NCBI RefSeq assembly: GCF_055900595.2
Contig: NZ_CM148325.1
Reading direction: 5' to 3' (one strand)
DNA: 64,000 nucleotides
Positions 27,011 to 54,424 of this stretch are shown here, in pieces. The translations under genes were made by a program, and so were the position numbers. The notes under the pieces are model-generated. The model did not search any database. It saw only the letters and a list, made by a program, of their open reading frames with translations, and was not told where the DNA came from. Positions within the stretch are counted from its first letter, which is position 1. Each line of letters opens with the position of its first letter.

Positions 27011-27305
27011 TTTGCCACCCTGGTTTTTTAAGCGGATTTAGAAAGCTGAAATCATTCGTGTGAATGATTTAAGCTTTTTTATTGATATTAATAATACCAT
27101 TTAAAAAAATCTGCATTAATTAATAGATGTGATAAATATTTAATATGCTTAAGTATTTGTTGTATTTATATTGCAATAGTTAATTTGTTTTAAATCAATA
27201 AAACAATATGTTTACATTGCGGCAACTTTTTTGATGTGAGAAATTTGTTTCCAAGAGATACAGACTCTTAACAACCAAAAAATAAATTTTATTAAGGAAC
27301 ATATT
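27011..27305 (+). promoter_or_regulatory. Highly AT-rich promoter/regulatory region of the yehDCBA fimbrial operon
   Basis: About 300 bp at roughly 20-25% GC with phased A/T tracts, as in H-NS-silenced fimbrial promoters. Confidence 0.5.
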
Positions 27306-50843: not shown

Positions 50844-51743
50844 TTAACGCAATAATGGACAATCCGGTGGTAATCGACAGCGCAACGCCGCCGGAAGTAT
50901 TTCAATATGAAAGTTTTGCCCACTCAACGGTTCGCCATCAAGATTAAAGGTAATTTCGTGTGGTGCTTGTATATCGAACCACGCCGAAGCACCTTCGATA
51001 ATATTCGGGTTATCTTCGTCAGATTTTAAGGTTGATACGAGAGCCGGAAGAATTTCATCGCCGGTGAAAATGCGCAGTTGCAGTAAGCCGTCGTTAATTA
51101 ATGCGTTCGGGCACAATTGCTGACCGCCACCTGCCTGACGGCCGTTACCAATACCAATGACTAGTGCGTCACCTTGCCAGTGAAAGTTTTCACCGCGGAT
51201 TTCACAACGGTCCGGTTGCAGTGTATCCATGCGCATTAAGCCGTGAATGATGTAAGAGACGCCACCCAGCGCGGCTTTTAATTTTTCCGGCGTTTCTGTG
51301 GTAATACGTGTCCCAAACCCACCCGTTGCCATATTAATAAAACAGGTTTGCTTGTTGACCTGCGCCATATCAATCGCAATAGCGTCACCAGCAATTGCTA
51401 GTTTCAGCGCCTTATCCAGTGCCTCAGGTATACCCACGCTGGTCGCGAAATCGTTCGCTGTACCTAGTGGCAAAATCCCCAGCGCGGGTATGTCATCGCC
51501 CTCACACTGAATCAGCGCCGAGGAAACTTCATTAATAGTGCCATCGCCACCACCGGCAATTACCGTTGCGACGCCCAGCTTCCGGGCCTCTTCTACAAAT
51601 CGGGCGGCATCGCCTTTCTCCCAGGTGACCCGCACATGGATCGTCATTCCTTCCTCGCGCAACAGCATAATTGCTTCGCGCAAGGGTTGATTGTCAGTAC
51701 TTTTGCCGTTAAGAATCAGTAAGCTGGCGGGAAATTCTGCCAT
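50844..51743 (-). CDS. yegS: Lipid kinase YegS (diacylglycerol-kinase catalytic domain)
   Basis: 299 aa; GGDGT motif ([13 protein letters not shown]). Confidence 0.9.
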
Positions 51744-52225
51744 AATCGTATGCCTTTATGATTGGTCTGTAGATAGTGTAGAGCAGAAAAGAAAAGGCGG
51801 AGTCAGAACAGGATGAAAATCGGAGGATAAAAAATCAGTTCAAGGATGGGGAATTCAGTGGTTACCAGTAAGGGGGGCAACGGTACACTCGGTTTTTATC
51901 GGCATAAATGATCACTGAAAGCACTTAAGCATTATTTTACTGTGGATTCAGCGTGGCAGCGAACATTAACGGTAGTCAGGGACAAACTTCAAAAGAGCAT
52001 ATGCATCATATTCAACAAAGCAATGGCATCCTCAATGTACGATTCCAATTATATTAAATAATTCCTATGAGGTTATCTGTGATAGGCCTCCATGTCTGTA
52101 TTTCCTACTTATGTAGGAAATTCTGCACAAAACATTTATTATAATCCTATTCAATAATGACAATGATGTCATTATTATATTTCAACACTAGAGAGTGTCG
52201 TTGGTGTTTAATGGGGGAAGGTGAG

Positions 52226-52543
52226 ATGAAAAAGACAGCTGCTATATCATTAATTAGTGTTTTTCTTATGTCTGGTTGTGCTGTGCATAATGATGAGACA
52301 AGTATCGGTAAATTCGGTCTTGCCTATAAAAGTAATATCCAGCGTAAACTCGATAACCAATACTACACTGAAGCCGAAGCATCTTTAGCCAGGGGCAGAA
52401 TATCTGGTGCGGAAAATATAGTGAAAAATGATGCAGCTAATTTCTGTGTTACTCAGGGCAAAAAAATGCAGATAGTTAACCTGAAGACTGAAGGGGCAGG
52501 ATTACATGGCGTCGCGCGTCTGACATTCAAATGTGGAGAGTGA
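52226..52543 (+). CDS. yegR: Lipoprotein YegR
   Basis: 105 aa from MKKTAAISLISVFLMSGCAV (lipobox); GGAAGGTGAG RBS; ORF-track start 52157 is an extension. Confidence 0.8.
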   Translation: MKKTAAISLISVFLMSGCAVHNDETSIGKFGLAYKSNIQRKLDNQYYTEAEASLARGRISGAENIVKNDAANFCVTQGKKMQIVNLKTEGAGLHGVARLTFKCGE

Positions 52544-52891
52544 GAATAGATTCAAGACTACCATGGACACATCCATTTTTATCTCTGATAAGGTATTCTT
52601 CAACACCATTATTGAATGTGAGTAATAATGACAAGCAGATAGATGAAACTACAGCAGAATTTTTATTTTATGCGGCTATCAGAAAATGATGGCATAAATA
52701 TTCCTATGCTTTAGCTTCATTTTTTGTAAGCGTCAAACATGCGCGTTCTGGCTGTGCGTAGCCGGACCCTGTGCGAGCACGATGCCGTTAAGTGAAAGGC
52801 ATCGTGCTATGAAGGGGAATTCTATCGATATGGTCAATGGAAGGAGGTAACCAGGTATGAATCCTTCCTTCTGTTTCATTGAATTACGCAT

Positions 52892-52978
52892 AAAAAATAA
52901 GCCCGTGTAAGGGAGATTACACAGGCTAAGGAGGTGGTTCCTGGTACAGCTAGCATTTTATGGGTTATGTTTTTCAGC
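52892..52978 (-). ncRNA. cyaR: CyaR (RyeE) Hfq-dependent sRNA
   Basis: Minus-strand sequence GCTGAAAAACATAACCCATAAAATGCTAGCTGTACCAGGAACCACCTCCTTAGCCTGTGTAATCTCCCTTACACGGGCTTATTTTTT matches CyaR as I remember it, including the terminator hairpin and U-tail; located just downstream of yegQ as in K-12. Confidence 0.85.
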
Positions 52979-53062
52979 GGAACGGATGATAACCTTAATA
53001 ACTGCAGCTGTATGTGATCGGTTTCTAAGAATTTTCCATCCGGGAAAAATAATCGAAATTAA

Positions 53063-54424
53063 TCACTTACCGTGGGGGTTACGCGTGGTTTCCCCGGAGA
53101 AATTACGCATCAGCAGCGCGTAATTTAGCTCAAGATCCTGCGGGACCGGGATCCACACAGTATAACCATCGCCCGGTGCGACCGGCATTGCTTCGCCTTT
53201 GGCGTTTTCCATATGCTCAAGGGTAAAGTTAATGTTCCCTTGCGGCGTCATCAGCTCAAGGCTGTCGCCAACGGAGAATTTATTTTTCACCGCTACCGCC
53301 GCGAGGTCGCCCTTGCGCTCACCGGTAAACTCACCAACAAACTGCTGGCGGTCAGAAACTGAATAACCGTATTCGTAGTTCTGATAATCGTCGTGAGTAT
53401 GACGACGCAGGAAACCTTCGGTATAGCCACGATGCGCCAGACCTTCCAGAGTTTCCAGCAGGCTGGTATCGAATGGTTTTCCCGCAGCTGCGTCATCGAT
53501 AGCTTTACGGTAAACCTGCGCGGTGCGTGCGCAATAGTAGAAAGATTTTGTACGACCTTCGATTTTCAGCGAATGCACGCCCATTTTGGTCAGGCGTTCA
53601 ACGTGGGCAATGGCGCGCAAATCTTTTGAGTTCATGATGTAAGTGCCGTGCTCATCTTCAAACGCGGTCATATACTCGCCCGGACGCTGGGCTTCTTCGA
53701 TCATAAACACTTTGTCGGTTGGCGCGCCGATACCCAGCGTCGGCTCAACGTTTTGCACCGGAATTGGTTCGTACTTGTGAACGATGTTGCCAACGTCATC
53801 TTCTTTACCTTCCTGGACGTTGTACTCCCAGCGGCAGGCGTTGGTGCAGGTGCCCTGGTTCGGGTCGCGCTTGTTGATATAGCCAGAGAGCAGGCAGCGA
53901 CCGGAGTAGGCCATGCACAGCGCGCCGTGAACGAAGATCTCTACCTCCATATCCGGCACCTGATTGCGGATCTCTTCAATCTCTTCCAGCGACAGCTCGC
54001 GAGAGAGGATCACACGGGTCAGGCCCATTTGCTGCCAGAATTTCACCGTCGCCCAGTTCACGGCGTTAGCCTGTACCGAGAGATGGATCGGCATTTCAGG
54101 GAAGTGCTCACGCACCAGCATAATCAGCCCTGGATCGGACATAATCAGCGCATCCGGCCCCATTTCCACCACCGGTTTCAGGTCACGGATAAAGGTTTTC
54201 AACTTAGCGTTGTGCGGTGCAATGTTGACCACAACATAAAACTTTTTCCCCAGCGCGTGGGCTTCATTAATGCCGAGCTGGAGATTTTCGTGGTTGAATT
54301 CGTTGTTGCGCACACGCAGGGAGTAACGCGGCTGGCCCGCATAAACAGCATCTGCGCCATAAGCGAAAGCGTAACGCATATTTTTCAGCGTTCCCGCCGG
54401 GGAAAGGAGTTCCGGTTTAAACAT
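53063..54424 (-). CDS. yegQ: Peptidase U32-family protein YegQ (TrhP, tRNA ho5U34 hydroxylation)
   Basis: 453 aa, same length as K-12 YegQ; U32 family. Confidence 0.9.
   Translation of the reverse strand: MFKPELLSPAGTLKNMRYAFAYGADAVYAGQPRYSLRVRNNEFNHENLQLGINEAHALGKKFYVVVNIAPHNAKLKTFIRDLKPVVEMGPDALIMSDPGLIMLVREHFPEMPIHLSVQANAVNWATVKFWQQMGLTRVILSRELSLEEIEEIRNQVPDMEVEIFVHGALCMAYSGRCLLSGYINKRDPNQGTCTNACRWEYNVQEGKEDDVGNIVHKYEPIPVQNVEPTLGIGAPTDKVFMIEEAQRPGEYMTAFEDEHGTYIMNSKDLRAIAHVERLTKMGVHSLKIEGRTKSFYYCARTAQVYRKAIDDAAAGKPFDTSLLETLEGLAHRGYTEGFLRRHTHDDYQNYEYGYSVSDRQQFVGEFTGERKGDLAAVAVKNKFSVGDSLELMTPQGNINFTLEHMENAKGEAMPVAPGDGYTVWIPVPQDLELNYALLMRNFSGETTRNPHGK

Follow-up and report, generated by a model that had tools for sequence, protein, structure and literature searches.

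The window, that is, the whole 64-kb stretch of DNA that was analysed, contains the divergent genes yegS and yegR, separated by an AT-rich spacer of 482 bp. The features of this region and its surroundings are as follows:

49983-50762, plus strand: gatR, intact gene for a repressor of the DeoR/GlpR family, 259 aa (ORF list)
50844-51743, minus strand: yegS (gene annotation)
52100-52121, no strand: 22-bp perfect palindrome, ATTTCCTAC-TTAT-GTAGGAAAT (sequence reading and inverted-repeat scan)
52102-52119, no strand: predicted EvgA box core, TTCCTAC-TTAT-GTAGGAA, 18 bp with two inverted 7-bp half-sites (motif scan and conservation)
52140-52145, plus strand: candidate -10 hexamer, TATAAT, of an EvgA-dependent yegR promoter, 20 bp 3' of the box (sequence reading)
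52152-52153, plus strand: putative transcription start (position of the -10 hexamer only)
52226-52543, plus strand: yegR, predicted lipoprotein of 105 aa with a signal peptide and the lipobox LMSGC
52895-52980, minus strand: sRNA CyaR (Rfam, 99.8 bits)
53063-54424, minus strand: trhP/yegQ

The yegR start codon agrees with that in the RefSeq annotation of an identical genome, and the YegR protein of the window is 93-96% identical to those of K-12 and PSS-04. No Pfam or NCBIfam family was matched by YegR above threshold. The gatR gene is intact in the window, whereas in K-12 it is split by an IS3 element.

A first-pass annotation of this DNA had pointed to a 22-bp palindrome with perfect 9-bp arms at 52100-52121, about 100 bp upstream of yegR in the divergent yegS-yegR region, and had proposed it as the binding site of a dimeric regulator. 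The description is accurate: the two 9-bp arms are perfectly complementary around the 4-bp spacer TTAT, and 104 bp separate the end of the palindrome from the yegR ATG. The full arm length is peculiar to the minority lineage to which the window belongs, the only one in which pairing is perfect out to the last 2 bp of each arm. In the majority of E. coli the sequence is AATTCCTAC...GTAGGAAAT, with half-sites that are perfect over 7 bp; the change of one flank base in the minority lineage, A to T at 52101, makes the perfect arms 9 bp long instead of 7.

With the requirement of perfect arms of at least 9 bp and a loop of at most 10, the 64-kb window contains 14 perfect palindromes, compared with 2.7 +/- 1.6 in dinucleotide shuffles. 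Since about 2.7 such palindromes are expected per 64 kb, any single one with 9-bp arms could be due to chance, and palindromy alone is weak evidence. The observed total is about fivefold the shuffle expectation. Besides the palindrome considered here and a neighbour at 52153-52176 (see below), there are 12 others with perfect arms of at least 9 bp, including those at 27049-27070 and 45429-45450; AAATCATTC-GTGT-GAATGATTT and TGAACATAT-CGGC-ATATGTTCA are examples of their sequences. Some of these palindromes are GC-rich and terminator-like, and others may be operators.

A shared motif at EvgA-controlled promoters

EvgA is a response regulator of the NarL/FixJ family with a LuxR-type helix-turn-helix domain, and it is phosphorylated by the sensor kinase EvgS under mildly acidic conditions. 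The inner 18 bp of the palindrome were taken by us to resemble the EvgA box, TTCPyTACA-NN-TGTAPuGAA, a consensus reportedly defined in the work of Masuda and Church from 2002 and 2003 and of Itou et al. from 2009. Comparison with regulator motifs, one of the checks proposed in the first-pass annotation, showed that the core matches the motif found at EvgA-controlled promoters. For this comparison the motif was re-derived from five EvgA-target promoters of K-12: regions of K-12 MG1655 with known EvgA targets, 40 kb altogether, were scanned with the yegR core, and as many as 3 mismatches were tolerated over the 14 half-site positions. Seven matches were obtained, and five of them fall in upstream intergenic regions of EvgA-controlled operons:

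emrK-evgA: TTCTTACGCCTGTAGGAT
frc: TTCTTACAACTGTAAGAA
yfdX/ypdI: GTCTTACAATTGTAGGAA
safA-ydeO: TTCTTACAGCTGTAGGCA
ydeP: TTCTTACAGGTGTAGGCT

The joint consensus of these five sites is TTCYTACA-NN-TGTARGAA. In the window, matches with up to 3 mismatches have a background of about 3 per 64 kb, so that five matches within some 1.8 kb of target intergenic DNA are, by a rough estimate, far beyond chance. The K-12 boxes, the yegR box included, are likewise 18-bp inverted repeats with TTCYTAC and GTARGAA half-sites, and they share with the window site an intergenic position 106-251 bp before the start codon of a gene induced by EvgA (111-251 bp for the five other K-12 sites, 106 bp for the yegR box). 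The K-12 yegR site is the orthologue of the window site, with an identical 18-bp core. Both half-sites of the window site agree with the other EvgA boxes, and the difference lies at positions 8-11, which read T-TA-T as against A-NN-T elsewhere; the left extended half-site matches at 7 of 8 positions. The same scan of K-12 gave no convincing box, with up to 3 mismatches, in the upstream region of gadE, a reported EvgA target.

Two further box-like sequences of K-12 deserve mention in their own right. A second, weaker site occurs in the yfdX promoter (ATCTTACAGTTGTAGTTA, 15.5 bits; L004 16501-16518), and another one lies inside mdtE (TTCTTACGCATGAAAGAA, 15.0 bits; L006 5887-5904).

When the degenerate core TTCYTACNNNNGTARGAA was used to scan the 64-kb window, allowing up to 2 mismatches, the sole match was 52102-52119, with 0 mismatches at the 14 core positions, where 0.33 matches are expected. 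With a position matrix built from the five K-12 sites other than yegR, the yegR site likewise came out as the best in the window. Its score is 13.8 bits, while the training sites score 22.6-28.2 bits; in shuffles of the window the maximum averages 11.6 bits and goes up to 15.8. The low score is explained by the inner positions, the T at position 8 and the TA of the spacer, at which yegR differs from the other sites. As a stand-alone significance test this matrix was rejected, being over-fitted to the inner positions and giving a score within the shuffle range.

The evgAS genes lie outside the window. Across the yegS-yegR spacer, strain M160133 and the window are 100% identical. This strain has intact evgA and evgS genes, and its 50-kb evg region contains three matches with up to 2 mismatches, all of them in intergenic DNA (yfdX, frc, and evgA-emrK); by chance 0.2 would be expected, and none of 100 shuffles reached three matches. 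Among complete E. coli genomes, evgA was found in 5392 of 5426.

Published work connects EvgA with yegR in K-12, where yegR already figures among the direct targets listed for EvgA. According to a review, EvgA binds the yegR promoter strongly (PMC8147483). In MG1655 with the constitutive evgS S600I mutation, the K-12 orthologue of the window gene was the third most up-regulated gene, with a log2 value of 7.75 or about 215-fold, placed between frc (8.37) and yfdX (6.97) (PMC4283999 Table S4), and the authors state that an EvgA site is present at all directly regulated genes (PMC4283999). Exposure to glutathione co-induces yegR with ydeO, yfdX, ypdI, emrK, frc, and oxc (PMC5811628). These induction data all concern the K-12 orthologue rather than the strain of the window. 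A paper on deletion of yegR/yegS has no bearing on the promoter (PMC3708739).

On the basis of motif recurrence, conservation, and this literature, the palindrome is very probably the EvgA box of the yegR promoter, as predicted in the present strain. The EvgA operator of yegR has already been described, and the palindrome is in this respect a known, ordinary functional feature. The proposal of a site for a dimeric regulator is thereby supported, and the shared core, the invariant half-sites, and the reported binding and induction point to EvgA as the specific regulator. A true transcription-factor operator could be recovered from sequence alone, with little new biology added. What the analysis does add is the essential invariance of the site across about 5400 E. 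coli genomes and in one divergent Escherichia species, despite hypervariable surroundings scarred by mobile elements, and a testable promoter geometry in which the box lies near -42 and a -35 element is lacking.

Conservation of the box in Escherichia

Conservation across species had also been proposed as a check, and both half-sites proved invariant in 13 Escherichia sequences, including that of a divergent species. In this 13-sequence alignment, the GTA flanking the box upstream and the A flanking it downstream are invariant too, and the left side is hypervariable. The site is hence neither unconserved nor motif-less, the combination that the first-pass annotation had named as speaking against an operator. 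Conservation and motif identity together raise this palindrome above the level of chance.

The yegS-yegR spacer is among the more variable parts of the locus. By megablast it aligns over at least 80% of its length in 376 of the 5426 complete E. coli genomes, and it is at least 99% identical to the window in only 21. In contrast to this variability, the block that starts with the palindrome and takes in yegR is present in 5405 genomes. A 31-mer of K-12 type around the box was at least 99% identical in 5037 records and had one mismatch in 381; with at most one mismatch, it occurs in 5417 of the 5426 complete genomes. In Escherichia the box forms the sharp left edge of a conserved yegR module, beside hypervariable DNA scarred by mobile elements.

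A divergent Escherichia sequence (L008) shows which parts of the region are retained over a larger distance. Its YegR is 91% identical and its non-coding DNA about 76% identical, and the half-sites are exact, while the spacer TTAT is replaced by AAAC and the flanks have diverged. The 20-bp gap to a -10-like hexamer is also kept, with TGTAAT in place of TATAAT.

The window allele of the yegR promoter and gene (51744-52543) is itself rare, with at least 99% identity in 21 of 5426 genomes and 90-95% in nearly all others. Such a divergence between alleles is unusually deep for core-like E. coli DNA and suggests an old recombinant or a minority lineage. In E. coli DA33133 (L013 1-412), an IS2 transposase gene ends 41 bp 5' of the EvgA box and leaves box and promoter intact; all spacer sequence farther upstream has been deleted naturally in this strain. 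E. coli FDAARGOS_1077 (L020 1501-1688) has kept the EvgA box and promoter, but yegR is not annotated there and yegQ follows close behind; its match to the window ends at query position 198 of 459.

Homologues of YegR with 81-83% identity occur outside Escherichia, in a Klebsiella sp., a Cedecea sp., and an Enterobacteriaceae MAG (L010, L011, and L012, at 2501, 2501, and 677, respectively), in a different gene context. The box is absent upstream of these three homologues, where the sequence is unrelated to that of Escherichia and bears a -10-like hexamer, TACAAT. This distribution suggests that control of yegR by EvgA may be specific to Escherichia. A tentative reading, possible although rather doubtful, is that the yegR box was gained in Escherichia, whereby a small lipoprotein gene that had arrived beside an integration hotspot of P2 prophages would have been captured into the acid-response regulon, the palindrome being in addition perfected to 9-bp arms in the lineage of the window. 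The 9-bp arms of that lineage could alter the affinity for EvgA.

Proposed promoter geometry and activation of yegR

The candidate -10 hexamer, TATAAT at 52140-52145, begins 20 bp past the box and would place the transcription start at about 52152-52153, so that the centre of the box (52110.5) would fall at about -41.5 to -42.5. Judging from the position of this hexamer, the box may thus occupy a class II position near -42. At a spacing of 17 bp, the -35 position reads GAAATT, a match at one of six positions. No plus-strand promoter was called by a sigma-70 scan at TATAAT 52140-52145, because the -35 element is absent. The gene yegR does not appear in the start-site supplements of Kim 2012, and a uniform -10 hexamer at 20-bp spacing was not seen at the other EvgA targets in K-12. 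A different, constitutive promoter, TAAACA-18-TATATT, has been predicted 5' of the box in K-12, and H-NS is recorded as associated with the K-12 yegR-yegS spacer (PMC3946193). The latter agrees with the low GC content, 33-35%, measured in the window region.

In the mechanism proposed here, one subunit of an EvgA dimer would bind each half-site, and the phosphorylated dimer would stand in for the missing -35 element and recruit RNA polymerase. Bound EvgA would probably also relieve silencing of the AT-rich spacer by H-NS. As an outcome, the lipoprotein gene yegR would be transcribed within the EvgA acid-response regulon. YegR is a predicted lipoprotein strongly induced by EvgA.

This arrangement has a likeness in the lux and tra boxes, inverted repeats of 20 bp or 18 bp near -42 that serve class II activation by LuxR-type regulators, which belong to the same DNA-binding superfamily as EvgA. 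In both cases a dyad operator of similar length is found, with a centre that, for yegR, is predicted to lie near -42 over an absent -35 element. The regulators differ, as those of the lux and tra boxes are acyl-homoserine-lactone receptors, whereas EvgA is a response regulator activated by phosphorylation; the yegR geometry, moreover, is drawn from the -10 hexamer alone.

Alternative readings and neighbouring sequences

It is very unlikely that the palindrome serves as operator for a dimeric regulator other than EvgA, such as YdeO or, within the NarL family to which EvgA belongs, a protein like NarL itself. The YdeO box is an inverted pair of ATTTCA hexamers with a spacer of 9-21 bp, and the window sequence ATTTCC-N10-GGAAAT fits it at 5 of 6 positions per hexamer (PMC4222967). 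YdeO is moreover induced by EvgA, so that co-induction data alone cannot separate the two. However, YdeO ChIP-chip identified seven operons and yegR is not among them (PMC4222967), and the left hexamer reads AATTCC in the majority of E. coli, with a fit at 4 of 6 positions (the right one at 5 of 6), while the inner 7-bp EvgA half-sites are invariant. The identical core at five EvgA promoters favours EvgA. NarL belongs to the same response-regulator family as EvgA and recognizes the heptamer TACYYMT, arranged in its 7-2-7 sites as TACYYMT-NN-AKRRGTA, inverted heptamers that share the TAC core with the yegR box. These sites differ from the yegR box in half-site sequence and register. TACTTAT within the palindrome fits one heptamer, but the second heptamer of the 7-2-7 arrangement is absent, and with only one heptamer-like match the yegR box does not qualify as a NarL site. 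Another candidate regulator, Nac, was rejected for the palindrome, since its listed yegR ChIP peak maps 3' of yegR after coordinate conversion, for which an offset between U00096.2 and U00096.3 was assumed. In the Nac ChIP dataset, evgA itself is repressed by Nac.

A role as an RNA or DNA hairpin, whether terminator, stabilising stem-loop, or cruciform, is extremely unlikely, although a 9-bp stem can form on either strand with -10.6 to -10.7 kcal/mol and z-scores of -5.2 and -6.6, and the conserved arms with a variable loop in the divergent Escherichia would fit. A T-run is absent 3' of the palindrome on both strands, the terminator scan makes no call, and only 3 of the 9 stem pairs are G-C; an Rfam search of 51400-53200 matches CyaR only. 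The arms are moreover conserved in sequence, without compensatory changes, and the sequence recurs at unlinked promoters, which would not be expected of a local structural role. The palindrome is probably untranscribed, because the one hexamer that could plausibly serve yegR as a -10 element lies 3' of it and the yegS start is about 360 bp away. To regard it as a chance palindrome devoid of specific function in AT-rich, H-NS-bound, horizontally acquired DNA would be in keeping with the frequency of such palindromes in shuffles, with the low GC content, and with the flagging of the region as H-NS-bound in K-12. The conservation data effectively refute this reading, which was given a negligible likelihood, as the site hardly varies across 5417 of 5426 genomes though neighbouring sequence is hypervariable, the half-sites are kept in a divergent species, and the motif common to EvgA promoters is matched exactly. 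Scarcely credible, too, is a link with recombination or mobile elements at the P2-like prophage hotspot next to yegR, where the palindrome might be bound by an integrase or by Cox or be left over from an att site. A remnant of about 70 bp, similar to the 3' end of a P2-like integrase, does lie 150 bp upstream, and in other strains yegR is bordered by P2-like prophages or what is left of them. Nevertheless, the attachment junction was located at the CyaR terminator, near 52900-52918. Strains that lack the prophage have the palindrome just as do those with a complete or a degraded one, and the motif is found again at loci unrelated to phages, emrK-evgA and ydeP among them.

With the EvgA box as the preferred reading of 52100-52121, several observations on the adjoining DNA may be added. 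The second perfect palindrome, AATAATGACA-ATGA-TGTCATTATT at 52153-52176, has 10-bp arms and lies just 3' of the putative transcription start of yegR. This palindrome is particular to the lineage of the window and differs from the K-12 sequence by 5 substitutions over 24 bp; K-12 has a shifted 9-bp palindrome, TATAATAAT-CATGCC-ATTATTATA, instead. The clustered changes that make the perfect palindrome of the window suggest that a 5' stem-loop was selected for or that the mutations arose by template switching at a quasi-palindrome; consensus folding of the putative 5' UTR gave no covariation support for it.

The integrase-like remnant in the yegS-yegR spacer is a segment of 61-70 bp (51878-51946) that K-12 and the majority of E. 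coli lack. At 84% identity it resembles the 3' end and attL arm of an integrase from a P2-like prophage; in 39 other genomes this integrase sits on the opposite side of yegR. The segment looks like the scar of an old P2-like integration 5' of the yegR promoter. On the other side of the gene, the window carries no P2 remnant (ogrK, yegZ) between yegR and CyaR (52544-52980), so that the attachment site is empty. The same interval holds the cryptic prophage PR-X in K-12 and the integrase end of a P2-like prophage in M2021_10044824, where the examined locus ends within the phage. A 171-bp stretch of the window at 52549-52719 is absent from K-12 and from L023 and aligns with the divergent Escherichia sequence L008.
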